DNA of 64,000 bases from assembly GCF_013315695.1 (NCBI RefSeq), contig NZ_CP054353.1; one strand, written 5' to 3'. A program made the translations under genes and the position numbers. Position 1 is the stretch's first letter. Every line of letters starts with the position of its first letter. Positions 13,674-50,495 of the stretch are shown here, piece after piece. The stretch comes from Escherichia coli. GTDB lineage: Bacteria > Pseudomonadota > Gammaproteobacteria > Enterobacterales > Enterobacteriaceae. The notes beneath the pieces are model-generated. The model did no database searches. It had not been told where the DNA came from and saw only the letters and a list, made by a program, of their open reading frames with translations.

Positions 13674-15674
13674 TCATCCTTGTTGCTGAAGCATGGGGAA
13701 TAATTGTTCGCAAAGCAAAACACCGTTATTCATTGCTTCTACCCGTGCCTCGCTTTCTGTATTACGAAATTGTCCCAACACATGTGCCAGCCGATAAAAA
13801 CCCACCGCGGTGAGGTCATTCGCCAGCAACTCTGCCTGACCAATAGCACTCTGTTCCTGATAGCGCCAGCCGTTATGGAGCAGTTGAATAAGTAACGCCT
13901 GGCAGCGCATCAGCAACTGATGAGCGGTAGACGGCACAGGCAGAACGCTGGCAGAAGGTAGCGGTGCCACAGGCGCAGTTTCTGCGTCCAGCGCCCAGGC
14001 GCGGGTTTTTGTCATCATCACCCGTGGTTCCAGTGTCAATTGCCCCTCTACAAAACTGACAAAGCCAGAAACCAGGCTCACGGGGTTGTCTGTTTGTTGC
14101 AAAAGCGCCGCCATGCGTTCAACGGCAAAAGGAGAACAGGCAGATGCCGGAAGGGATAACGTCAGCACATTATCTTCCCCTTCGCCACTGATTACCTGCG
14201 CATCCAGTGTCTGGCGGCTGCTATCCCAACCGAGCGAAATACACTCCGCTACCGGCAGAATAAATAAGTTATCGACCTGGTTGAGTGGTCGTATGCAGGC
14301 GGGGGGACGCTGGCGTAAATATTCCCGCAAAGCCACAATGCCCGGCTGGCGCAACGGCGCGCTCAACATTTGCCAGGCGTCTGGCGACAGTGGAACAACA
14401 CTACTCAAGCGGTTACGGGTCGCTAACAGCAGCTCGCCATCGGCACTGCGTTTTGCTGCTTGTGAAACAATTTGCCCACCAGCCAGTGCGCCAGCCTGAA
14501 AACTAAATAGCCGACGTTTTGTCGCGGGAGCGTTTTCTTGTTCGCTTCTCGGCCAACTACGCGAAAGGTGCAAAATACTGCCGGTGTCGGGATCGGTGAA
14601 CCAGATGCGTAAACCATACTGCTCAATATCCTGCCAGCAACGCATACCTAAAGACACCAGCCGCAGATGATCAAGCTTTGCTTCTCCGGCAATGCCAGAG
14701 CCAACGACCGTGCGCCACGGCACAGGAGGAACTTCACCAACACTGTCGCGCCGCGCCATCTCTTGTGCGCAATTTAATCGACTGTTTAATGCCGCAAGCT
14801 GACGTAAGCATTCTCCGGCATGGTAGTGGCTGGCGCGGGCGTGGAAGGCATCAACGCTGGCGCGCAATTGCCGTAGCGATTCACTCACCCATCGCCAGTT
14901 GCAGCGTTCCGCCGCTTGCTGCGCGCGGCTGAAAGCGGCCTCGTAATGAATAAGCGGCTGGCTGATGCCGCTCAGCCATAATGCCTGGCTTAGTTGCTGA
15001 ACATATTGACGACACGCGTTGCCCTCTTCGCTGGCAAACGGATCGTCAGATGATGTGACGTGTTCGCTGCGCATCTGCCAGATTAAATGGTTAAATTCTG
15101 CTTGCTGCGCTTTGGCCTGGACAAAGGCCTGTACTGCCAGCACAACATGTTCGCAAAGTGTTCCTTCAATACAATCACAGCGTGCGAAACGAATGCTGCT
15201 GCGGGAATAAAAACGTACATCGCTCATCGGTAAGCGGGCAGAGGGAATTTCGCCCGGCGTACAGAACAACTCAATGGTGATGCCTTTAGCGACCAGCGCC
15301 TGCGCGCGTTTGCGGGTGGCATCGGGAAGGGTAGCCAGTTCTTCTAGCCAGATTGCCGGATCCCACTCTTCTTCTTTTTCCGTAGGCTGGGTGGTGGCGC
15401 AAAGTCGCTGATAACTTAAAACCAGCATCACGCGATGGCGGCACATGCCGCTGGCCCCGCAGCTGCATTGAGCCTCTTTCAGTGCCTGACCGTTCGCCAG
15501 CTGGGTACGGACACCGTCACTGAAGGTGGCGATTAAAGCGCCGTTCTTATGGCTGATTTCCGGGACGTTGCCATTTTCCAGTTCCTTAAGACTGCGTTTA
15601 ACAAAACCGGCATTGCTTAACGCCGTCAGGGCCTGCGGCGTCAGTTCTAATAATTCCGGACGTAGTGAATTCAT
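13674..15674 (-). CDS. yehQ: YehQ, SWIM zinc-finger domain protein
   Basis: 666-aa ORF; Cys/His SWIM-like motif near the N-terminus; gene order. Confidence 0.75.
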   Translation of the reverse strand: MNSLRPELLELTPQALTALSNAGFVKRSLKELENGNVPEISHKNGALIATFSDGVRTQLANGQALKEAQCSCGASGMCRHRVMLVLSYQRLCATTQPTEKEEEWDPAIWLEELATLPDATRKRAQALVAKGITIELFCTPGEIPSARLPMSDVRFYSRSSIRFARCDCIEGTLCEHVVLAVQAFVQAKAQQAEFNHLIWQMRSEHVTSSDDPFASEEGNACRQYVQQLSQALWLSGISQPLIHYEAAFSRAQQAAERCNWRWVSESLRQLRASVDAFHARASHYHAGECLRQLAALNSRLNCAQEMARRDSVGEVPPVPWRTVVGSGIAGEAKLDHLRLVSLGMRCWQDIEQYGLRIWFTDPDTGSILHLSRSWPRSEQENAPATKRRLFSFQAGALAGGQIVSQAAKRSADGELLLATRNRLSSVVPLSPDAWQMLSAPLRQPGIVALREYLRQRPPACIRPLNQVDNLFILPVAECISLGWDSSRQTLDAQVISGEGEDNVLTLSLPASACSPFAVERMAALLQQTDNPVSLVSGFVSFVEGQLTLEPRVMMTKTRAWALDAETAPVAPLPSASVLPVPSTAHQLLMRCQALLIQLLHNGWRYQEQSAIGQAELLANDLTAVGFYRLAHVLGQFRNTESEARVEAMNNGVLLCEQLFPMLQQQG

Positions 15675-20108: not shown

Positions 20109-20224
20109 ATATTCATCCCTGAAATGTATTAATGAAATAAACGATATTTTACGCGCAATAAATGTTTGGCGCATTAGTTGTTTGAGCGGAAAATATCTGG
20201 AAAGCAGATCACAGTAAATAAAAA

Positions 20225-20250
20225 AACCTGCTGGTGAGGCAGGTTCTTTT
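20225..20250. terminator. Bidirectional hairpin upstream of yehL
   Basis: aacctgc-tggtgag-gcaggtt with T-runs on both sides. Confidence 0.5.
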
Positions 20251-20548
20251 ATTTACTACTTTCAGGCCTAACACCACGGCCTGTGCAACATCGTGTTCCA
20301 ACGAACGAATTATAACCATCGGTGGACCCCGTTGCAATTAAGATAATGAGATTTATAATCCTGACTGTTGGGAGGTTGCGCCGGATCGAACCCATTTCAA
20401 GTCCTGGCTACCGGACGGGTGGTGCCGCAGGTAGTGCCCTGATCCGGAGTGCAACATCGTGGTCCAACATACGTAAACCAGTATCGACAGGCAGGTGATG
20501 CTGCCAACTTACTGATTTAGTGTATGATGGTGTTTTTGAGGTGCTCCA

Positions 20549-20824
20549 GTGGCTTCTGTTTCTATCAGCTGTCCCTCCTGTTCAGCTACTGACGGGGTGG
20601 TGCGTAACGGCAAAAGCACCGCCGGACATCAGCGCTATCTCTGCTCTCACTGCCGTAAAACATGGCAACTGCAGTTCACTTACACCGCTTCTCAACCCGG
20701 TACGCACCAGAAAATCATTGATATGGCCATGAATGGCGTTGGATGCCGGGCAACAGCCCGCATTATGGGCGTTGGCCTCAACACGATTTTACGTCACTTA
20801 AAAAACTCAGGCCGCAGTCGGTAA
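20549..20824 (+). CDS. insA: IS1 InsA
   Basis: 91-aa ORF inside IS1 copy A. Confidence 0.9.
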
Positions 20825-21246
20825 CCTCGCGCATACAGCCGGGCAGTGACGTCATCGTCTGCGCGGAAATGGACGAACAGTGGGGCTATGTCGGGGCTAA
20901 ATCGCGCCAGCGCTGGCTGTTTTACGCGTATGACAGGCTCCGGAAGACGGTTGTTGCGCACGTATTCGGTGAACGCACTATGGCGACGCTGGGGCGTCTT
21001 ATGAGCCTGCTGTCACCCTTTGACGTGGTGATATGGATGACGGATGGCTGGCCGCTGTATGAATCCCGCCTGAAGGGAAAGCTGCACGTAATCAGCAAGC
21101 GATATACGCAGCGAATTGAGCGGCATAACCTGAATCTGAGGCAGCACCTGGCACGGCTGGGACGGAAGTCGCTGTCGTTCTCAAAATCGGTGGAGCTGCA
21201 TGACAAAGTCATCGGGCATTATCTGAACATAAAACACTATCAATAA
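20743..21246 (+). CDS. insB: IS1 InsB (expressed as InsAB' fusion by frameshifting)
   Basis: 167-aa ORF overlapping insA inside IS1 copy A. Confidence 0.9.
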
Positions 21247-21256
21247 GTTGGAGTCA

Positions 21257-21967
21257 TTACCCAGTAGCATATTCCAGACCGCCTTCCTGAATAATCTGAT
21301 CCATAACATCCTCACGCTCTTTATATCTCGTGCAGTGCAGTTCAAGTGCCGCGAGTACAGCCATTACCGGTGATGGTAATTTTGTCGTTTTCGGGCTGTT
21401 AATCAGATCGATCGCCTGAGCGATGAAGTTTTGCCACTCTAAAGTACAGGCGCTGAAGTCAAATGTAGCTGTTTTGTTATCCCGTTGCGACACGCCACAG
21501 GCTAAGCGACGTAACTGGGTTAATTTATCTACAGGTGTAACAGGATCTCCGGGAAAGCGGCGATGGCTTAAGGTGGTGGGTACGACTTCAAGCGGAAAAA
21601 CGACAGCAATATCTTTTGCCAGCCACGGTAAAATAACGTCTGTATTTTTGTCAGCCACGTAGATTTCTGGTGTAACTGAGGGCTGTTCCTGAATGATGGT
21701 AGAAAAGTCAGATAATTCGAGAGTTTTCGTTACCGTTCGAGTATGTTTCGATGTAGCATTCTCCGCTTGTTCCACATACCCCTTTTTCGTTTTCTCCGCA
21801 ATCAGCTTGAGTTCCGCTTTTTCCGCCGCCGCAGCATCTGCAAAGCTTTTTACCTGACTTTGCCCGTTGGTGCCGACTTTGCCCCAACTGATATTCAGTT
21901 CGTTTCCCTGCTGCTCCACCGCCCAGAATTTATGTGATTTTTCGTCCTGATAAATATAGGTTTTCAT
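21257..21967 (-). pseudogene. yehI: yehI-like WGR-domain protein, N-terminal 235 codons only, truncated by IS1 copy A
   Basis: ORF begins MKTYIYQDEKSHKFWAV (WGR) and its stop codon lies inside the IS1 terminus. Confidence 0.65.
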
Positions 21968-23658: not shown

Positions 23659-25084
23659 TAATGCCAGTCAGTTAAGCAACTGACTGGCTCTTTTTCGGGG
23701 CTGTGGGGTATTTCCAGGGCCTCTCCTTTACCACTCTCGGGAAGGCCCTTTCCCTTCTTGTCGGTAATTTCACAAGTTGTCCCATACTTGCAAGATCGCG
23801 CATCAGCTCCGGTATACGTCCCGGTGAAGCGCCCTGCAATGTCATCAGCATTCTCATCACCATTCCGCATGATTCTGAGAAACTCAGTTGATTCGGCCAG
23901 TAACCTTTCAGATGTTCCGCCATTTTAATCATCTGATATCTCACCAGATTATAAGCCAGTAAGACACCCCACAGCTCTTGCTCCACAAGCTCCGGTTTTT
24001 TACTTCTCAGCGTCAGCCTGCTCAGTTGCATCGTCTGTTTTATCTCCCTGTATCCCAGTTCGATTTCCCAGCGATGACTGTACAGATCCGCCATTTCTCC
24101 TCCGGGGAAGCGCATGGCGTCCGTCATCGACGTCAGCAGATGGCAGACTTTTCCTTTGCGCGTCACGGTCAGCAGGCGGGCTGTCACTTCATTTCCCAGT
24201 CCCGGCCACTTTTTTCGTGCCTGCGGGCTGGTTTTCAGCTTCACCAGATGATCGCCTTTACCCAGTTTTCTGATCTCTTCATATTGCGCTCCCTTTCTGA
24301 GAGGTATCATCCAGTGGCGGTGTTCTCCCGCCAGGCTCCAGGCATTTAACAGTCCCAGTGAGTAATAACCTTTATCCATTAACGTCAGAGTGTTATCGCC
24401 GGTTTGTTCTATAAGTTGCTCAGCAAGCTCATTTTCGCTGTTCTTCATCGTGCCGAAGGCTGCAGCCGTCAGCAGATGGCTGGTCAGTTCCATCTGGCAG
24501 ACCATTTTGACCTGCGGGTAGAGCGCCGGGTTCCCGGCATGTGTCTGGCGGGGGAAGGCTGCATCGTTCTCTGGTGTATCCGGTGTGCGCCAGAACACAC
24601 CATCGATGGCCAGCAGGGTCAGGCCGCACCAGTGCGGATGCGGCGTGGCGTTATGCCAGAGCTGCGCTGTTTTCGTGAACACGCGGCGGACAGCCTCACT
24701 TCCCAGGCGCTGGCGGGCCTGAATAACGGCACTGGGGGCAACGAAGGGGCGATTGCCCGGCAGCATGATGTCCAGGCGATTCACAATCTGGTGAAGAGGT
24801 TCTTTACGCTCAAGCGCCATGCCAACAATACACCAGACCATCATTTCGAGGGGAAGACGGCGCTTGCGTAGCGTTACAGTACCTGATTCGGCAAGGCAAC
24901 GAGAGATGAGTTCGGGGTCGAGGTAATCCCCCAGAGAAGTCAGTGGGTTACGCAGAGAATCGTAACGGGATACCAGATCAAGAGCCTGTCCAATGTGCAT
25001 AAAAAAATCCGGAAACAAGTGAGCGTTTCCGGATTCTTACACAGCCACTGGATCGGTCAACTGATCCTTAACTGATCGGCATTA
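23659..25084 (-). mobile_element. IS4 (1426 bp) with 12-bp target-site duplication catccttgtaag
   Basis: Termini taatgccagtcagttaag … cttaactgatcggcatta; identical 12-mers at 23647-23658 and 25085-25096. Confidence 0.9.
23672..25000 (-). CDS. insG: IS4 transposase (DDE family)
   Basis: ORF 23672..25018; likely start at [10 protein letters not shown]. Confidence 0.85.
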
Positions 25085-31148: not shown

Positions 31149-31203
31149 GGTGATGCTGCCAACTTACTGATTTAGTGTATGATGGTGTTTTTGAGGTGCT
31201 CCA

Positions 31204-31479
31204 GTGGCTTCTGTTTCTATCAGCTGTCCCTCCTGTTCAGCTACTGACGGGGTGGTGCGTAACGGCAAAAGCACCGCCGGACATCAGCGCTATCTCTGCT
31301 CTCACTGCCGTAAAACATGGCAACTGCAGTTCACTTACACCGCTTCTCAACCCGGTACGCACCAGAAAATCATTGATATGGCCATGAATGGCGTTGGATG
31401 CCGGGCAACAGCCCGCATTATGGGCGTTGGCCTCAACACGATTTTACGTCACTTAAAAAACTCAGGCCGCAGTCGGTAA
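31204..31479 (+). CDS. insA: IS1 InsA
   Basis: Identical to the other copies. Confidence 0.9.
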
Positions 31480-31901
31480 CCTCGCGCATACAGCCGGGCA
31501 GTGACGTCATCGTCTGCGCGGAAATGGACGAACAGTGGGGCTATGTCGGGGCTAAATCGCGCCAGCGCTGGCTGTTTTACGCGTATGACAGGCTCCGGAA
31601 GACGGTTGTTGCGCACGTATTCGGTGAACGCACTATGGCGACGCTGGGGCGTCTTATGAGCCTGCTGTCACCCTTTGACGTGGTGATATGGATGACGGAT
31701 GGCTGGCCGCTGTATGAATCCCGCCTGAAGGGAAAGCTGCACGTAATCAGCAAGCGATATACGCAGCGAATTGAGCGGCATAACCTGAATCTGAGGCAGC
31801 ACCTGGCACGGCTGGGACGGAAGTCGCTGTCGTTCTCAAAATCGGTGGAGCTGCATGACAAAGTCATCGGGCATTATCTGAACATAAAACACTATCAATA
31901 A
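31398..31901 (+). CDS. insB: IS1 InsB
   Basis: Identical to the other copies. Confidence 0.9.
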
Positions 31902-31967
31902 GTTGGAGTCATTACCTAAATAGGCTTGATGAAAGTTCTATTTCTATATTTTTCAATATACAAATTT

Positions 31968-32494: not shown

Positions 32495-32631
32495 ATTCAA
32501 CCAAACGACTCGGGGTGCCCTTCTGCGTGAAGGCTGAGAAATACCCGTATCACCTGATCTGGATAATGCCAGCGTAGGGAAGTCACGGACCACCAGGTCA
32601 TTGCTTCTTCACGTTATGGCAGGAGCAAACT
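32495..32631 (+). promoter_or_regulatory. TPP (THI-box) riboswitch in the thiM leader
   Basis: Contains ggggtgcccttctgcgtgaaggctgagaaatacccgtatcacctgatctggataatgccagcgtagggaa, the classic thiM THI-box, directly upstream of the thiM start. Confidence 0.85.
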
Positions 32632-39112: not shown

Positions 39113-39170
39113 CTTTTAATTCCTTCATGACAGGTAATGTAAGGTACGCGATGACGGTAATGACTCCAAC

Positions 39171-39674
39171 TTATTGATAGTGTTTTATGTTCAGATAATG
39201 CCCGATGACTTTGTCATGCAGCTCCACCGATTTTGAGAACGACAGCGACTTCCGTCCCAGCCGTGCCAGGTGCTGCCTCAGATTCAGGTTATGCCGCTCA
39301 ATTCGCTGCGTATATCGCTTGCTGATTACGTGCAGCTTTCCCTTCAGGCGGGATTCATACAGCGGCCAGCCATCCGTCATCCATATCACCACGTCAAAGG
39401 GTGACAGCAGGCTCATAAGACGCCCCAGCGTCGCCATAGTGCGTTCACCGAATACGTGCGCAACAACCGTCTTCCGGAGCCTGTCATACGCGTAAAACAG
39501 CCAGCGCTGGCGCGATTTAGCCCCGACATAGCCCCACTGTTCGTCCATTTCCGCGCAGACGATGACGTCACTGCCCGGCTGTATGCGCGAGGTTACCGAC
39601 TGCGGCCTGAGTTTTTTAAGTGACGTAAAATCGTGTTGAGGCCAACGCCCATAATGCGGGCTGTTGCCCGGCAT
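39171..39674 (-). CDS. insB: IS1 InsB
   Basis: Identical to the other copies. Confidence 0.9.
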
Positions 39675-39868
39675 CCAACGCCATTCATGGCCATATCAAT
39701 GATTTTCTGGTGCGTACCGGGTTGAGAAGCGGTGTAAGTGAACTGCAGTTGCCATGTTTTACGGCAGTGAGAGCAGAGATAGCGCTGATGTCCGGCGGTG
39801 CTTTTGCCGTTACGCACCACCCCGTCAGTAGCTGAACAGGAGGGACAGCTGATAGAAACAGAAGCCAC
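39593..39868 (-). CDS. insA: IS1 InsA
   Basis: Identical to the other copies. Confidence 0.9.
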
Positions 39869-40145
39869 TGGAGCACCTCAAAAACACCATCATACACTAA
39901 ATCAGTAAGTTGGCAGCATCACCCGCGATGACAATACCACTTAATAATACCTTTTAAATACCTTTGCGGTGAAAACTTGACCGCTGTAACATTTTTTCTG
40001 ATGAATCGAGCCAACAGAAAACGCTGAAAAAACATCCAAAAGATGGAAAAACTCGCCCGTAACGACCAGGATTATGATTGCCCGCAAAAGGCGGGCCAGG
40101 ACAATCCATAGCCGATATCCAATCGGAATTTACGGGAGCATAGTA

Positions 40146-41198
40146 ATGACAGATATTGCGCAGTTGCTTGGCAAAGACGCCGACAACCTTTTACAGCACC
40201 GTTGTATGACTATTCCTTCTGACCAGCTTTATCTCCCCGGACATGACTACGTAGACCGCGTGATGATTGACAATAATCGCCCGCCAGCGGTGTTACGTAA
40301 TATGCAGACGTTGTACAACACCGGGCGTCTGGCTGGCACAGGATATCTTTCTATTCTGCCGGTTGACCAGGGCGTTGAGCACTCTGCCGGAGCTTCATTT
40401 GCCGCTAACCCGCTCTACTTTGACCCGAAAAACATTGTTGAACTGGCGATCGAAGCGGGCTGTAACTGCGTGGCGTCAACTTACGGCGTGCTGGCATCGG
40501 TATCTCGGCGTTACGCGCATCGCATTCCATTCCTCGTCAAACTTAATCACAACGAGACGCTAAGTTACCCGAATACCTACGATCAAACGCTGTATGCCAG
40601 CGTGGAGCAGGCGTTCAATATGGGCGCGGTGGCGGTTGGGGCGACTATCTATTTTGGCTCGGAAGAGTCACGTCGCCAGATTGAAGAAATTTCTGCGGCT
40701 TTTGAACGTGCGCACGAGCTGGGCATGGTGACAGTGCTGTGGGCCTATTTGCGTAACTCCGCCTTTAAGAAAGATGGCGTTGATTACCATGTTTCCGCCG
40801 ACCTGACTGGTCAGGCGAACCATCTGGCGGCAACCATAGGTGCAGATATCGTCAAACAAAAAATGGCGGAAAATAACGGCGGCTATAAAGCGATTAATTA
40901 CGGTTATACCGACGATCGTGTTTACAGCAAATTGACCAGCGAAAACCCGATTGATCTGGTGCGTTATCAGTTAGCTAACTGCTATATGGGCCGGGCTGGG
41001 TTGATAAACTCCGGCGGTGCTGCGGGCGGTGAAACTGACCTCAGCGATGCAGTGCGTACTGCGGTTATCAACAAACGCGCTGGCGGAATGGGGCTGATTC
41101 TTGGACGTAAGGCGTTCAAGAAATCGATGGCTGACGGCGTGAAACTGATTAACGCCGTGCAGGACGTTTATCTCGATAGCAAAATTACTATCGCCTGA
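40146..41198 (+). CDS. fbaB: Fructose-bisphosphate aldolase class I
   Basis: ORF 40074..41198; start [18 protein letters not shown]; 350 aa. Confidence 0.9.
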
Positions 41199-41238
41199 TA
41201 CGCCTTATACGAACAGCACTACCCCGTATGACGGAAAA

Positions 41239-41260
41239 GGCGTTTACGTCGCATCCGGCA
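41239..41260. repeat. REP-like palindromic unit
   Basis: ggcgtttacgtcgcatccggca motif. Confidence 0.4.
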
Positions 41261-41283
41261 TAAAAACACGCGCACTTTGCTAC

Positions 41284-41311
41284 GGCTTCCCTATCGGGAG
41301 GCCGTTTTTTT
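41284..41311 (+). terminator. Intrinsic terminator after fbaB
   Basis: ggcttccc-tatc-gggaggcc hairpin followed by gttttttt. Confidence 0.55.
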
Positions 41312-41371
41312 GCCTGTCATTCTGATTAATTTTCGAATTGTCGTTTTTGTGATCGTTATCTCGACATTTGA

Positions 41372-43571
<2,200 letters not shown>

Positions 43572-43854
43572 GGACGGTATATGACTAACCTGTTTGTTCG
43601 TAGCGGAATTTCTTTTGTCGATCGTAGCGAAGTTTTAGCCCATATCGGTAATGAGATGCTCGCGAAAGGTGTGGTTCATGATACCTGGCCACAGGCATTA
43701 ATTGCCAGAGAAGCAGAATTCCCTACCGGGATAATGCTTGAGCAGCACGCCATTGCAATACCGCATTGTGAGGCGATTCATGCTAAGTCGTCAGCCATTG
43801 GTGATGCTGCCAACTTACTGATTTAGTGTATGATGGTGTTTTTGAGGTGCTCCA

Positions 43855-44130
43855 GTGGCTTCTGTTTCTATCAGCTGTCCCTCCTGTTCAGCTACTGACG
43901 GGGTGGTGCGTAACGGCAAAAGCACCGCCGGACATCAGCGCTATCTCTGCTCTCACTGCCGTAAAACATGGCAACTGCAGTTCACTTACACCGCTTCTCA
44001 ACCCGGTACGCACCAGAAAATCATTGATATGGCCATGAATGGCGTTGGATGCCGGGCAACAGCCCGCATTATGGGCGTTGGCCTCAACACGATTTTACGT
44101 CACTTAAAAAACTCAGGCCGCAGTCGGTAA
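43855..44130 (+). CDS. insA: IS1 InsA
   Basis: Identical to the other copies. Confidence 0.9.
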
Positions 44131-44552
44131 CCTCGCGCATACAGCCGGGCAGTGACGTCATCGTCTGCGCGGAAATGGACGAACAGTGGGGCTATGTCGG
44201 GGCTAAATCGCGCCAGCGCTGGCTGTTTTACGCGTATGACAGGCTCCGGAAGACGGTTGTTGCGCACGTATTCGGTGAACGCACTATGGCGACGCTGGGG
44301 CGTCTTATGAGCCTGCTGTCACCCTTTGACGTGGTGATATGGATGACGGATGGCTGGCCGCTGTATGAATCCCGCCTGAAGGGAAAGCTGCACGTAATCA
44401 GCAAGCGATATACGCAGCGAATTGAGCGGCATAACCTGAATCTGAGGCAGCACCTGGCACGGCTGGGACGGAAGTCGCTGTCGTTCTCAAAATCGGTGGA
44501 GCTGCATGACAAAGTCATCGGGCATTATCTGAACATAAAACACTATCAATAA
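44049..44552 (+). CDS. insB: IS1 InsB
   Basis: Identical to the other copies. Confidence 0.9.
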
Positions 44553-44840
44553 GTTGGAGTCATTACCTCAGCCATTTATCTGTTAAGGCCAACAAATAAA
44601 GTTCATTTTCAGCAAGCGGATGATGATAACGACGTGGCGGTATCGTTGGTTATTGCGTTGATTGTGGAAAATCCGCAGCAGCAATTGAAACTTTTACGCT
44701 GTTTATTTGGCAAGTTACAACAGCCCGATATCGTCGAGACACTAATTACTCTTCCTGAAACTCAGTTAAAGGAATACTTCACAAAGTATGTTTTAGATTC
44801 AGACGAATAAATCCCTCTGTAACAATAAAAAGGACTGTTT

Positions 44841-45125
44841 ATGAAACGCAAGATTATTGTCGCTTGCGGAGGCGCGGTTGCGACCTCCACGATGGCGGCG
44901 GAAGAAATTAAAGAGTTGTGTCAGAGTCATAATATTCCTGTTGAATTAATCCAGTGTCGGGTTAATGAAATAGAAACCTATATGGATGGCGTGCATTTGA
45001 TATGCACCACGGCCAAAGTGGATCGTAGTTTTGGCGATATTCCGTTAGTTCACGGCATGCCTTTTGTTTCTGGTGTCGGTATCGAAGCATTACAAAATAA
45101 AATTCTGACTATCTTACAGGGGTGA
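44841..45125 (+). CDS. gatB: Galactitol PTS EIIB
   Basis: 94-aa ORF with active-site Cys near the N-terminus ([11 protein letters not shown]). Confidence 0.9.
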
Positions 45126-45128
45126 CCT

Positions 45129-46484
45129 ATGTTTTCAGAAGTCATGCGTTATATTCTCGACCTCGGCCCTACGGTGATGCTGCCGATTGTCATCATTATT
45201 TTTTCTAAAATATTAGGCATGAAGGCAGGCGATTGCTTTAAAGCGGGTCTGCATATCGGGATTGGCTTTGTTGGCATTGGCCTTGTGATTGGCTTAATGC
45301 TGGATTCCATTGGTCCGGCGGCGAAAGCGATGGCGGAAAATTTCGACCTGAATCTGCATGTGGTCGATGTCGGCTGGCCGGGCTCTTCACCCATGACCTG
45401 GGCGTCGCAAATTGCGCTGGTGGCGATTCCGATTGCGATTCTGGTTAACGTGGCGATGTTACTGACCCGTATGACGCGGGTGGTAAATGTTGATATCTGG
45501 AATATCTGGCATATGACCTTCACCGGCGCGTTGCTGCATCTGGCAACCGGTTCATGGATGATAGGGATGGCGGGTGTGGTAATTCACGCGGCGTTTGTTT
45601 ATAAGCTCGGCGACTGGTTTGCCCGCGATACCCGAAATTTCTTTGAGCTGGAAGGCATTGCCATCCCGCACGGTACGTCGGCGTATATGGGGCCAATTGC
45701 GGTGCTGGTGGATGCTATCATCGAGAAAATCCCAGGCGTTAACCGAATTAAATTTAGTGCCGACGATATTCAGCGCAAATTTGGTCCGTTTGGCGAGCCT
45801 GTCACCGTGGGTTTTGTGATGGGGCTGATTATCGGCATCCTCGCGGGTTACGATGTCAAAGGTGTATTGCAGCTGGCGGTAAAAACGGCGGCGGTTATGC
45901 TGCTGATGCCACGGGTGATTAAACCCATCATGGATGGTTTAACGCCCATCGCTAAGCAGGCCCGTAGTCGTTTACAGGCGAAGTTCGGCGGTCAGGAGTT
46001 CCTGATTGGCCTGGATCCCGCATTACTGCTGGGGCATACGGCGGTGGTATCGGCAAGCCTGATTTTTATCCCGCTCACCATTTTAATTGCTGTTTGTGTG
46101 CCGGGTAATCAGGTGCTGCCGTTTGGCGACCTTGCCACCATCGGCTTCTTTGTGGCGATGGCGGTCGCGGTGCATCGTGGAAATCTGTTCCGCACCTTAA
46201 TCTCGGGTGTCATCATTATGAGCATCACCCTGTGGATCGCGACGCAAACTATTGGTTTGCACACCCAACTGGCGGCTAATGCGGGCGCGTTAAAAGCCGG
46301 GGGTATGGTGGCTTCAATGGATCAGGGCGGTTCTCCCATTACCTGGTTACTGATTCAGGTTTTCTCCCCGCAAAATATTCCCGGTTTCATTATTATCGGC
46401 GCAATTTATCTGACCGGTATTTTCATGACCTGGCGTAGAGCGCGTGGTTTTATTAAACAAGAGAAAGCCGTTCTCGCAGAATAA
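45129..46484 (+). CDS. gatC: Galactitol PTS EIIC permease
   Basis: 451-aa polytopic membrane ORF. Confidence 0.9.
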   Translation: MFSEVMRYILDLGPTVMLPIVIIIFSKILGMKAGDCFKAGLHIGIGFVGIGLVIGLMLDSIGPAAKAMAENFDLNLHVVDVGWPGSSPMTWASQIALVAIPIAILVNVAMLLTRMTRVVNVDIWNIWHMTFTGALLHLATGSWMIGMAGVVIHAAFVYKLGDWFARDTRNFFELEGIAIPHGTSAYMGPIAVLVDAIIEKIPGVNRIKFSADDIQRKFGPFGEPVTVGFVMGLIIGILAGYDVKGVLQLAVKTAAVMLLMPRVIKPIMDGLTPIAKQARSRLQAKFGGQEFLIGLDPALLLGHTAVVSASLIFIPLTILIAVCVPGNQVLPFGDLATIGFFVAMAVAVHRGNLFRTLISGVIIMSITLWIATQTIGLHTQLAANAGALKAGGMVASMDQGGSPITWLLIQVFSPQNIPGFIIIGAIYLTGIFMTWRRARGFIKQEKAVLAE

Positions 46485-46531
46485 TTTTTACCTGAGGGGG
46501 AGGTTATCCCCCTTAACAATCAGGAGTTTTT

Positions 46532-47572
46532 ATGAAATCAGTGGTGAATGATACTGATGGTATCGTGCGCGTAGCAGAAAGCGTCATTCCTGAAATTAAA
46601 CATCAGGATGAGGTGCGGGTAAAAATTGCCAGCTCGGGCTTATGTGGTTCCGATTTACCCAGGATATTTAAAAATGGTGCACATTATTATCCAATAACGT
46701 TAGGCCATGAATTTAGCGGCTATATTGATGCGGTGGGATCCGGTATTGATGATTTACATCCCGGCGATGCGGTTGCCTGTGTGCCGTTATTACCCTGTTT
46801 TACTTGTCCAGAGTGTCTGAAAGGGTTTTATTCCCAGTGCGCAAAATATGATTTTATTGGCTCACGGCGTGATGGTGGATTTGCCGAATATATTGTCGTT
46901 AAGCGAAACAATGTCTTTGCACTACCTGCGGATATGCCTATTGAGGATGGCGCTTTTATTGAACCGATTACCGTTGGCCTGCATGCGTTCCATTTAGCGC
47001 AAGGATGTGAGAATAAAAACGTTATTATTATTGGTGCCGGAACCATTGGCCTGCTGGCAATTCAGTGCGCTGTCGCGCTGGGAGCAAAGAGTGTGACGGC
47101 TATCGACATTAGCTCAGAAAAACTGGCACTGGCAAAATCTTTCGGTGCGATGCAAACATTTAACAGCCGTGAAATGAGCGCGCCGCAAATACAGGGCGTT
47201 TTACGCGAGCTGCGCTTTAATCAGCTTATCCTCGAGACGGCTGGCGTCCCGCAAACCGTCGAACTGGCGGTAGAGATTGCCGGTCCTCATGCCCAACTGG
47301 CGCTGGTGGGCACGTTGCATCAGGATCTGCATTTAACATCGGCAACGTTTGGCAAAATATTGCGTAAAGAGCTGACGGTGATTGGCAGTTGGATGAACTA
47401 CTCCAGCCCTTGGCCGGGGCAGGAGTGGGAAACGGCGAGCCGGTTGCTGACAGAACGTAAGTTAAGCCTGGAGCCATTAATCGCTCACCGTGGAAGCTTT
47501 GAAAGCTTCGCCCAGGCGGTGCGTGACATCGCTCGTAATGCTATGCCGGGCAAAGTGTTGCTCATTCCCTGA
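46532..47572 (+). CDS. gatD: Galactitol-1-phosphate 5-dehydrogenase (zinc-dependent MDR family)
   Basis: 346-aa ORF with zinc-ligand Cys/His and GxGxxG motifs. Confidence 0.9.
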   Translation: MKSVVNDTDGIVRVAESVIPEIKHQDEVRVKIASSGLCGSDLPRIFKNGAHYYPITLGHEFSGYIDAVGSGIDDLHPGDAVACVPLLPCFTCPECLKGFYSQCAKYDFIGSRRDGGFAEYIVVKRNNVFALPADMPIEDGAFIEPITVGLHAFHLAQGCENKNVIIIGAGTIGLLAIQCAVALGAKSVTAIDISSEKLALAKSFGAMQTFNSREMSAPQIQGVLRELRFNQLILETAGVPQTVELAVEIAGPHAQLALVGTLHQDLHLTSATFGKILRKELTVIGSWMNYSSPWPGQEWETASRLLTERKLSLEPLIAHRGSFESFAQAVRDIARNAMPGKVLLIP

Positions 47573-47671
47573 AACCGCGGGCCAGCGTGATGCTGGCCCG
47601 GTATTGTGCAAAACAGATCATTCACCAATGGTCCCCCTTCGTTTACACTAGCCACAATTGAATATGGGTAA

Positions 47672-48451
47672 ATGACGATGAATTCATTCGAGCGAAGGAA
47701 TAAGATCATCCAATTAGTGAATGAACAGGGAACCGTGCTTGTTCAGGATCTGGCGGGAGTATTTGCTGCCTCGGAAGCGACAATCCGTGCCGATTTGCGC
47801 TTTCTCGAACAAAAAGGCGTGGTTACGCGCTTTCATGGCGGTGCGGCGAAAATAATGTCCGGTAATAGTGAAACCGAGACCCAGGAAGTCGGGTTTAAAG
47901 AGCGATTTCAGCTCGCCAGCGCGCCAAAAAACAGAATAGCGCAGGCGGCAGTCAAAATGATCCACGAAGGGATGACCGTTATTCTCGACAGCGGAAGTAC
48001 GACAATGCTTATCGCCGAAGGATTAATGACCGCCAAAAATATCACGGTGATTACCAACAGTCTCCCGGCAGCATTTGCCCTTTCCGAAAATAAAGACATT
48101 ACTCTGGTCGTCTGCGGTGGCACGGTCCGCCATAAAACGCGCTCGATGCATGGCTCCATTGCTGAGCGTTCATTGCAGGATATTAATGCCGATTTAATGT
48201 TTGTCGGTGCTGATGGTATTGATGCGGTTAATGGTATTACGACCTTTAATGAAGGCTATTCGATTAGCGGGGCGATGGTCACAGCCGCAAATAAAGTGAT
48301 TGCCGTTCTCGATTCATCGAAATTTAATCGTCGCGGTTTTAATCAGGTACTGCCAATCGAAAAAATTGACATTATTATTACCGATGATGCTGTGTCTGAG
48401 GTGGATAAACTGGCATTGCAGAAGACACGGGTAAAATTAATTACGGTGTAG
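47672..48451 (+). CDS. gatR: DeoR-family repressor GatR, apparently intact
   Basis: 259-aa uninterrupted ORF with N-terminal HTH and C-terminal sugar-phosphate binding domain. Confidence 0.85.
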   Translation: MTMNSFERRNKIIQLVNEQGTVLVQDLAGVFAASEATIRADLRFLEQKGVVTRFHGGAAKIMSGNSETETQEVGFKERFQLASAPKNRIAQAAVKMIHEGMTVILDSGSTTMLIAEGLMTAKNITVITNSLPAAFALSENKDITLVVCGGTVRHKTRSMHGSIAERSLQDINADLMFVGADGIDAVNGITTFNEGYSISGAMVTAANKVIAVLDSSKFNRRGFNQVLPIEKIDIIITDDAVSEVDKLALQKTRVKLITV

Positions 48452-50324: not shown

Positions 50325-50411
50325 AAAAAATAAGCCCGTGTAAGGGAGATTACACAGGCTAAGGAGGTGGTTCCTGGTACAGCTAGCATTTTATGGGTTA
50401 TGTTTTTCAGC
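50325..50411 (-). ncRNA. cyaR: CyaR (RyeE) small RNA
   Basis: Minus strand reads gctgaaaaacataacccataaaatgctagctgtaccaggaaccacctccttagcctgtgtaatctcccttacacgggcttatttttt, matching the CyaR sequence as I recall it, with its terminator. Confidence 0.85.
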
Positions 50412-50495
50412 GAAACGGATGATAACCTTAATAAATGCAGCTGTATGTGATCGGTTTCTAAGAATTTTCCATCCGGGAAAAATAATCGAAATTAA

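Follow-up and report, generated by a model that had tools for sequence, protein, structure and literature searches.

The window, by which we mean the whole 64-kb (64,000-nucleotide) stretch of E. coli DNA analysed here, carries gatY-gatZ-gatA-gatB-gatC-gatD in this order between fbaB and yegS, with the same synteny as in K-12. Within this array gatA is interrupted by an insertion sequence, IS1. The features of the locus are listed below; strains MSB1_4I and AF3 are public genomes introduced further on.

41306-41425, + strand: gat promoter/leader region, from the fbaB terminator (41282-41305) to the gatY start
41426-42280, + strand: gatY, tagatose-bisphosphate aldolase subunit, intact, 284 aa; NCBIfam NF009374/TIGR01858 over the full length
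42309-43571, + strand: gatZ, intact, 420 aa, without stops; NCBIfam NF011626 equivalog over 1-420/421, 898 bits
43581-43799, + strand: gatA 5' fragment, codons 1-73, with the gatA start at 43581
43791-43799: target-site duplication, left copy, TCAGCCATT, 9 bp, perfect
43800-44567, + strand: IS1, 768 bp, oriented like the gat operon and interrupting gatA
43855-44130, + strand: insA of this IS1
ending at 44552, + strand: insB' frame of this IS1
44568-44576: target-site duplication, right copy, TCAGCCATT, 9 bp, perfect
44577-44810, + strand: gatA 3' fragment, codons 74-150 and the stop; 'missing N-terminus' according to PGAP in MSB1_4I
44841-45125, + strand: gatB, EIIB(Gat), downstream of the IS1, intact, 94 aa; NCBIfam NF007643 over 1-94/94
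45129-46484, + strand: gatC, EIIC(Gat), intact, 451 aa; TIGR00827, 711 bits
46532-47572, + strand: gatD, galactitol-1-phosphate 5-dehydrogenase, intact, 346 aa; NF007642 equivalog, 726 bits
47672-48451, + strand: gatR, DeoR-family repressor, an uninterrupted 259-codon ORF directly downstream of gatD

The insertion lies exactly after codon 73 of gatA, as 73 codons counted from 43581 end at 43799 and the element begins at the next base. A match of 9 bp at fixed positions, as seen in the flanking repeats, would arise by chance with a probability of about 4e-6, and other IS1 insertions of the gat locus are likewise flanked by 9-bp duplications. A preliminary description of this DNA had placed an IS1 after codon 73 with a perfect 9-bp duplication, and both points hold to the base. 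The length of the element and its terminal inverted repeats agree with those of the IS1 family (about 768 bp, with repeats of about 23 bp); the repeats are imperfect, with 18 matches between the ends GGTGATGCTGCCAACTTACTGAT and GGTAATGACTCCAACTTATTGAT over the first 23 positions. The insA and insB' frames have the family's layout for joining by a programmed -1 frameshift, with the A6C motif TTAAAAAAC starting at 44104, and the IS1 transposase model NCBIfam NF033558 aligns with each of the two, over profile positions 1-81 and 75-199. PGAP labels the identical element in MSB1_4I 'IS1-like element IS1A family transposase, programmed frameshift'. In a consensus scan for outward promoters and intrinsic terminators the IS1 contained 3 promoter-like sites against 5.3 expected in shuffled sequence, and 6 terminator-like sites against 5.3 expected; these counts do not exceed the background and say nothing about polarity.

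The interrupted gatA frame continues for 8 codons of IS1 and then meets a stop at 43824-43826, which gives an 81-aa product. NCBIfam NF007236 (PTS galactitol IIA) matches the 5' fragment over profile positions 1-73/150 only, and PGAP describes this fragment in MSB1_4I and AF3 as 'incomplete; missing C-terminus'. The fragment keeps His62, which we take to be the phosphorylation site of GatA. The 3' fragment has no usable start, and its longest internal ORF begins with a GTG at 44634 and encodes 58 aa. Removing the IS1 and one repeat in silico restores a 453-nt ORF for a 150-aa GatA that matches NF007236 over 1-150/150 and is identical to K-12 GatA at 149 of 150 residues, the sole difference being an A at residue 20 where K-12 has T. 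GatA residues 10-138 are homologous to the EIIA of the solved structure 1XIZ, so the split after residue 73 removes half of a single EIIA domain.

We found no second gatA in the 64-kb window, where a tblastn search with GatA returned only the halves of the split gene. The preliminary description had named an intact copy elsewhere as a finding that would overturn its prediction of a galactitol-negative strain; none was found in the nearest public genomes, MSB1_4I and AF3, each of which has one gatA place by junction-anchored blastn ('distant', with a reach of about 65-70% DNA identity).

Integrity of the remaining gat genes and gatR

All six gat genes match NCBIfam equivalog or subfamily models over their full length, gatA after in-silico excision, and the claim that gatYZ and gatBCD are intact is borne out by their full lengths and lack of internal stops. 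GatY is identical to its K-12 counterpart at 281 of 284 residues, without stops, and the gene is annotated as gatY in MSB1_4I. The gatC frame is free of stops, whereas that of MG1655, where gatC is a frameshifted pseudogene, reads with 8. Among the components of the transporter, IIA is split after residue 73 of 150, whereas IIB and IIC are intact. The promoter/leader region is conserved but for a few SNPs in an alignment with K-12 and two other strains, and a promoter-like site in the leader (41368-41395) is a consensus match only. The spacer between fbaB and gatY differs in length from that of K-12 by 80 bp, owing to a repeat-like segment upstream of the fbaB terminator, and the same length difference occurs in other natural strains. 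A hidden defect elsewhere in the gat operon or its promoter was considered and none was found, the 80-bp difference lying upstream of the fbaB terminator.

The gatR ORF was correctly described as uninterrupted and 259 codons long; PGAP starts the gene at the second Met (47678), which gives 257 aa. When the two K-12 GatR fragments separated by IS3E are joined, the result is identical to this protein at 257 of 257 residues. The protein recurs in several lineages under one accession, WP_001295426.1. It matches DeoR-family models over its full length; NCBIfam holds no GatR-specific model, and the PGAP name is only 'DeoR/GlpR family'. From its sequence, GatR would be expected to repress the gat promoter.

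The preliminary description had given gatR as disrupted by an insertion sequence in K-12, and IS3E indeed splits the gene in MG1655. Of the 5,109 genomes in which gatR was matched, at most 4,756 have it contiguous (in one place, at least 80% covered), an upper bound because the IS1-split gatR of E. coli B strain C2566 counts as contiguous. At all nine natural loci inspected gatR is uninterrupted, the disrupted copies being seen in K-12 and B laboratory strains. Intact gatR is the usual state in natural isolates, and the contrast with K-12 therefore carries little weight. The window shares with the laboratory strains K-12 (gatR::IS3E) and B (gatR::IS1) a gat locus in which one gene is broken by an insertion sequence. 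There, however, the repressor is hit and expression becomes constitutive, whereas the opposite arrangement is found here, with uptake predicted to be lost and the repressor preserved.

The gatA::IS1 allele in its clone and across E. coli

E. coli MSB1_4I (NZ_LR898874.1, JMX41_RS16495/16485) and AF3 (NZ_OZ547117.1) are close relatives of the strain behind the window. Both carry gatA::IS1 with the same site, orientation, duplication and IS1 sequence, and RefSeq marks gatA as a pseudogene in both. MSB1_4I differs from the window by one nucleotide over 12.4 kb around the gat locus, and both strains share the window's second IS1 upstream of fbaB. They also possess a 5.9-kb segment (rcnRAB, an integrase and an HNH endonuclease) that the window lacks; relative to MSB1_4I this loss near the locus is an IS1-IS1 deletion. 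In AF3, moreover, a frameshift is annotated in gatY and yegT contains a stop, both absent from the window. Three members of the clone, each sampled separately (Australia, UK and the window), carry the allele, and its occurrence in this clone is already known through the annotation of the two public sister genomes.

Three further IS1 copies lie in the window:

20494-21261, + strand: IS1, 100% identical to the gatA copy
31149-31916, + strand: IS1, 100% identical to the gatA copy
39156-39923, - strand: IS1 between yegT and fbaB, opposite in orientation to the gatA copy and flanked by a separate 9-bp duplication, CGCGATGAC

Sequence comparison across the 64-kb window showed the gatA copy to be 100% identical to all three, and four identical copies within 64 kb suggest recent IS1 activity. 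Each sister genome contains at least 40 matching pieces, nearly all of them IS1 (median 10).

Across 5,426 complete genomes, which are phylogenetically non-independent, gatA was absent in 423 and fragmented in 61, whereas control pieces of the same length were fragmented in 6 (fbaB) and 2 (yegS). The frequency of natural gat hits, 61 for gatA against 6 and 2, challenges the view of such losses as neutral by-products. Among complete E. coli genomes IS1 has inserted independently at six gatA positions (nt 44, 154, 195, 218, 219 and 370), five of them in natural isolates and that at nt 195 in a K-12 derivative; additional IS1 insertions occur in gatZ, gatB and gatD.

A parallel is offered by an unrelated lineage, that of strain 98193, with 13 complete genomes (e.g. 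NZ_CP173591.1), which carries gatA::IS1 in the same orientation with gatR, gatB, gatC and gatD intact. This insertion is an independent event 1 bp upstream of that in the window, with the duplication GTCAGCCAT; its IS1 is a different variant (99.74% identical), the chromosomal background is about 97.4% identical and, unlike the window, the lineage has an internal stop in gatY. Common ancestry or recombination as a source of both sites is ruled out by the 1-bp-shifted duplication and the different IS1 variant. A spacing of only 1 bp between two of the six sites would be expected by chance in about 10% of cases, by a rough estimate, and does not make a significant hot spot. A broader proposal is that natural, often multidrug-resistant clinical E. 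coli repeatedly lose galactitol uptake through IS1 despite a functional GatR, owing to a narrow IS1 hot spot near gatA nt 210-219 or to host-associated selection. We hold this to be doubtful; if true, it would contradict the mouse-gut result on the regulated gat operon discussed below.

Predicted loss of galactitol uptake and its possible origins

The reading we favour, at a probability of roughly 0.9, is a simple transpositional knockout, in which IS1 inserted into gatA as a by-product of IS1 expansion and left a Gat-negative strain with GatR intact. The sequence shows that the element entered an otherwise complete, presumably GatR-regulated gatYZABCD-gatR locus, duplicating 9 bp, and that EIIA(Gat), a single-domain protein of 150 residues, is cut short after residue 73. 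The truncated GatA would probably fail to fold or to relay phosphate from HPr to GatB. Given the established polarity of IS1 elements, this copy would also be expected to lower the expression of the downstream gatB, gatC and gatD. With no uptake and phosphorylation of galactitol, the strain would be Gat-negative (dulcitol-negative), and what remains of the operon would stay repressed, because the uninterrupted GatR does not differ from the allele common in nature. Within the clone, such a by-product of IS1 expansion would be tolerated because galactitol use is dispensable. Non-use of galactitol by the strain is most likely, a prediction soundly drawn from the truncated EIIA and from the finding of no second gatA in the window or the sister genomes.

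It is very unlikely that the strain is still galactitol-positive, through another EIIA of the mannitol/fructose family, a second gat-like cluster, or read-out from the IS1 combined with a gatA fragment. E. coli has several EIIA paralogues, with weak NCBIfam cross-matches for FruA, MngA, MtlA and PtsN, and the gatA search covered the window and two sister genomes, so that a divergent substitute EIIA is conceivable. These paralogues, however, score at most 50 bits against 298 for the GatA equivalog, gatA-like sequence is absent elsewhere in the window, MSB1_4I and AF3, and the IS1 is expected to reduce gatBCD expression too. In K-12, moreover, gatA mutants are Gat-negative (PMC3945185). A misjoin caused by repeats, which could have placed an IS1 in gatA during assembly, is practically ruled out: many identical IS1 copies are a classic source of misassembly, but the target duplication is perfect, the gatA halves rejoin seamlessly, and the identical junction is present in the two independent complete assemblies of MSB1_4I and AF3. 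We also regard as highly improbable a reversible switch, in which IS1 would be excised precisely from between the 9-bp repeats often enough to sustain a Gat+/Gat- polymorphism, although with perfect repeats and an intact remaining operon and regulator excision would regenerate wild-type gatA. Precise IS1 excision is rare, and the three clone members, which were sampled separately, are all fixed for the allele. Gat-negative reversion does maintain a polymorphism in mice, but the published reversions are a 1-bp gatC indel, and the term 'excision' is absent from that report (PMC5850726).

The most substantial rival is that the loss was positively selected, galactitol uptake being harmful or costly in the host and gatA::IS1 adaptive in the clone, which we consider possible but unlikely. 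In its favour are the IS1 insertions at six gatA positions and in gatZ, gatB and gatD, and the 61 genomes with fragmented gatA against the 6 and 2 of the controls. Furthermore, when K-12 MG1655 evolved in the mouse gut, gat inactivation was the first, universal adaptive step, 79% of it by insertion sequences, with gatA included, and galactitol was inhibitory to the ancestor (Barroso-Batista 2014, PMC3945185). In these mouse-evolved clones gat was a frequent target, and insertion sequences, lying as here in gat coding regions, rendered them Gat-negative (PMC3945185, PMC5094792). They carried gatR::IS, however, and expressed gat constitutively, whereas gatR is intact in the natural isolate that yielded the window; the mouse effect hinged on that constitutive expression, and with gatR restored no gat-negative mutants (0) arose in mice over 19 days (PMC5850726). 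The gat locus is also inactivated at a very high rate, about 1e-5 (Lourenco 2016, PMC5094792), and recurrence is therefore explicable by mutation supply and relaxed selection, while the genome counts are phylogenetically non-independent. A 2026 preprint, in addition, finds the gat operon to be required for the fitness of ESBL E. coli against the microbiota. A mild oddity may be recorded beside these studies, in that gat loss occurs here with intact gatR and was not seen in mice when gatR was functional.

IS-mediated loss of gat and natural Gat-negative polymorphism are already published, Gat-negative clones being frequent in healthy human guts (PMC5850726). Taken alone, the knockout of gatA by IS1 is a finding of little weight, real and correctly read but ordinary. 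It predicts a dulcitol-negative biotype for the clone, dulcitol use being a routine and variable diagnostic trait, and adds one more case of genes being eroded by IS1 in a lineage rich in this element. Its interest lies in the pairing of a transporter that is probably dead with a repressor that appears to be live, a combination that the mouse experiments suggested is not favoured. Insertion sequence hits in gatA are many-fold commoner than in the flanking genes across complete genomes, and natural gat loss may be driven by selection or only by mutation supply together with relaxed constraint.

IS1 in gatA and the state of the gat locus

The gatA gene starts at 43581 and its codon 73 ends at 43799, which places the IS1 insertion exactly after that codon. 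The coordinates of the locus are as follows.

Features of the gat locus
41426-42280, gatY
42309-43571, gatZ
43791-43799 and 44568-44576, target-site duplication TCAGCCATT, directly abutting IS1 on both sides
43800-44567, + strand, IS1 in gatA, 768 bp, starting GGTGATGCTGCCAACTTACTG... and ending ...AGTTGGAGTCATTACC
44841-45125, gatB
45129-46484, gatC
46532-47572, gatD
47672-48451, gatR, uninterrupted ORF; PGAP starts the 257-aa product at the second Met (47678)

Both IS1 reading frames matched the NCBIfam IS1 transposase model in a profile search, the frameshift motif TTAAAAAAC lies at 44104, and one public genome annotates the identical element as 'IS1-like element IS1A family transposase, programmed frameshift'. 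Three further copies in the window (20494-21261, +; 31149-31916, +; 39156-39923, -) are 100% identical to it. The broken gatA frame continues for 8 IS1-encoded residues before a stop. Removing IS1 together with one repeat in silico yielded a 150-aa GatA that fits the GatA equivalog model over its full length (298 bits), with residue 20 the only difference from K-12 GatA. The preliminary description had placed the split after codon 73 with a perfect 9-bp duplication, and the boundaries, codon count, restored ORF and flanking repeats all agree with it.

The remaining gatYZ-BCD genes were described as intact, and all five are indeed full length, free of stops and matched by their own NCBIfam models over the whole profile; gatC is intact here whereas it is a pseudogene in MG1655. 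The unbroken gatR reported earlier was likewise recovered, and its 257-aa product is identical at every residue to K-12 GatR rebuilt from two MG1655 fragments. Since these fragments are parted by IS3E, the statement that gatR is IS-disrupted in K-12 is correct. The promoter and leader from the fbaB terminator to gatY are conserved relative to K-12. An 80-bp indel in a repeat-like segment between fbaB and its terminator (41190-41260) lies upstream of the terminator and outside the gat promoter; the longer form occurs in K-12 and strain 98193, the shorter in the window and ZJ3920.

The clone and gat erosion among E. coli genomes

The left IS1-gatA junction was found at 100% identity and in a single piece in 2 of 5,426 complete E. 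coli genomes, MSB1_4I from a rectal swab in Australia and AF3 from a blood culture in the UK, in both of which RefSeq annotates gatA as two pseudogene fragments. Around the gat locus the window differs from MSB1_4I by 1 base in 12,420 bp (position 40577, in fbaB), and a second IS1 ahead of fbaB is common to the two. The window adds a third member to the clone. AF3 also carries an annotated gatY frameshift (17847-18700 of L006, its comparison stretch) and a yegT internal stop (14256-15533), absent from the window and MSB1_4I, which are either further decay in AF3 or sequencing errors.

Matches of 453-bp queries in 5,426 genomes (contiguous, at least 80% of the query in one place)
Restored gatA: matched 5,003; contiguous 4,942; fragmented 61
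fbaB, flanking control: matched 5,420; contiguous 5,414; fragmented 6
yegS, flanking control: matched 5,422; contiguous 5,420; fragmented 2

With gatA absent from 423 of the 5,426 genomes, natural erosion of the gat locus is out of proportion to that of its flanking genes, in counts uncorrected for phylogeny. Independent IS1 insertions were found at six positions in gatA.

IS1 insertions in gatA (nucleotide, genome, flanks)
44, Ecol_517, own 9-bp duplication
154, ST540 group, own 9-bp duplication; deletion through gatB and a second IS1 in gatD
195, ATCC 98082 (K-12 derivative), own 9-bp duplication
218, 98193 lineage (13 genomes), 9-bp duplication GTCAGCCAT
219, window/MSB1_4I/AF3 clone, own 9-bp duplication
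370, EC24, own 9-bp duplication

In the junction search PEC41 gave a two-piece match resembling that of EC24, and further IS1 insertions lie in gatZ and gatB. The counts of insertions are lower bounds, as the junction query detects one IS1 orientation only and as 385 genome records have at least 40 matching pieces each in that search. Disruption of gatA by IS1 is not unusual in E. coli.

The 98193 lineage (NZ_CP173591.1 and 12 related genomes) is an unrelated clinical lineage that includes isolates from Egypt and a dog. It carries IS1 in the same orientation 1 bp upstream of the window's site, in a background about 97.4% identical to the window and with a different IS1 variant, and its insertion is a separate event. 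Its gatY contains an internal stop. By a rough estimate, two of six sites placed at random would lie 1 bp apart with about 10% chance, and nt 210-219 is a possible IS1 target hot spot.

A gatR match was present in 5,109 genomes, and no more than 4,756 of them had it in one place at ≥80% coverage; this number is an upper limit, since a gatR split by IS1 can still be joined into a single place, as happens in E. coli B strain C2566. The gene was uninterrupted in 9 of 9 natural loci inspected, and disrupted copies were seen in the laboratory strains K-12 (IS3) and B (IS1). In the B strains NZ_CP014268.2 (C2566) and NZ_CP084683.1 (BL21(RP)), IS1 apparently interrupts gatR. Both classic laboratory lineages thus appear to have an IS-disrupted gat repressor, and natural isolates mostly not.

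Other IS1 copies and features in the window

The window lacks 5,885 bp (~5.9 kb) that MSB1_4I carries between two directly repeated IS1 copies (compare 880-5996 of L004, its comparison stretch). The missing segment holds rcnR, rcnA, rcnB, a tyrosine integrase, an HNH endonuclease, a duplicated TPP riboswitch and a fimbrial adhesin gene remnant. At its site a single IS1 (31149-31916) lacks a target duplication (CAAACGTCG on its left, TAAATAGGC on its right), which, with the paired copies in MSB1_4I, points to a deletion that probably arose by IS1-IS1 recombination. Loss of the rcn genes predicts loss of Ni/Co efflux.

The IS1 at 20494-21261 is likewise without a target duplication (CGACAGGCA to its left, CAGTAGCAT to its right). 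As in MSB1_4I, it and an IS4 (about 23672-25018, mapped from L004) both break a WGR/DUF4132-domain gene, a second site of IS-driven erosion in the same 64 kb. The minus-strand copy at 39156-39923 has a perfect 9-bp duplication CGCGATGAC and lies 43 bp from the yegT start and 222 bp from fbaB, upstream of both, where it may disturb the divergent promoters. Its orientation is opposite to that of the gatA copy, and since the pair brackets fbaB-gatYZ-gatA', it could mediate inversion of that segment.

Other features of the window
1-6500, prophage tail genes, including a 1,230-aa host-specificity-type ORF (2096-5788) and a Lom-like gene, corresponding to the annotated tail-fibre/Lom region of MSB1_4I
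20220-20295, - strand, OrzO-P type I antitoxin RNA, roughly 200 bp away from the IS1 copy that starts at 20494
32501-32597, + strand, TPP riboswitch ahead of thiM, the sole remaining copy
50328-50413, - strand, CyaR sRNA
The three RNAs are Rfam matches above the gathering score.

Galactitol use and the origin of the loss

The insertion splits a single-domain EIIA. GatA is homologous over residues 10-138 to 1XIZ, a solved EIIA of the mannitol/fructose family, so the 81-residue product keeps only about half of the fold; it retains His62, which we take to be the phosphorylation site. The fragment would be non-functional, and we give a probability of about 0.9 that gatA::IS1 is a null allele. IS1 is polar on downstream genes, and here would probably affect gatBCD. 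Galactitol would then be neither taken up nor phosphorylated, with GatR keeping the gat remnant repressed. A tblastn search of the window recovered only the two halves of the split gene, and a junction-anchored search at blastn sensitivity found one gatA place each in MSB1_4I and AF3; the second intact copy that would have overturned the original prediction was seen in none of the three. The insertion is confirmed and its interpretation supported at sequence level, from which we infer that the strain is very likely Gat-negative.

Inactivation of gat was the universal first adaptive step of K-12 colonising mice, 79% of it by IS insertions with gatA among the targets (PMC3945185), and occurs at about 1e-5 per generation (PMC5094792). 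Among nine healthy humans who were sampled, six had Gat-negative clones at 58% or more (PMC5850726), so that both the event class and the natural polymorphism are known. Positive selection behind the gatA loss is a minority alternative that we consider unlikely. Selection against gat in mice required the constitutive expression that gatR::IS causes: once gatR was restored, 19 days passed without a gat-negative mutant, and the mutants that emerged were constitutive ones with gatR::IS (PMC5850726). The one mildly unexpected feature is the pairing of a dead transporter with an intact repressor, which the mouse work suggested is not favoured. A 2026 preprint places the gat operon among the functions that ESBL E. 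coli requires in competition with the microbiota. Public genomes already carry the allele and annotate it, and its mechanism is textbook; we read gatA::IS1 as the product of relaxed selection in a clone rich in IS1, where new insertions of the element are in high supply.
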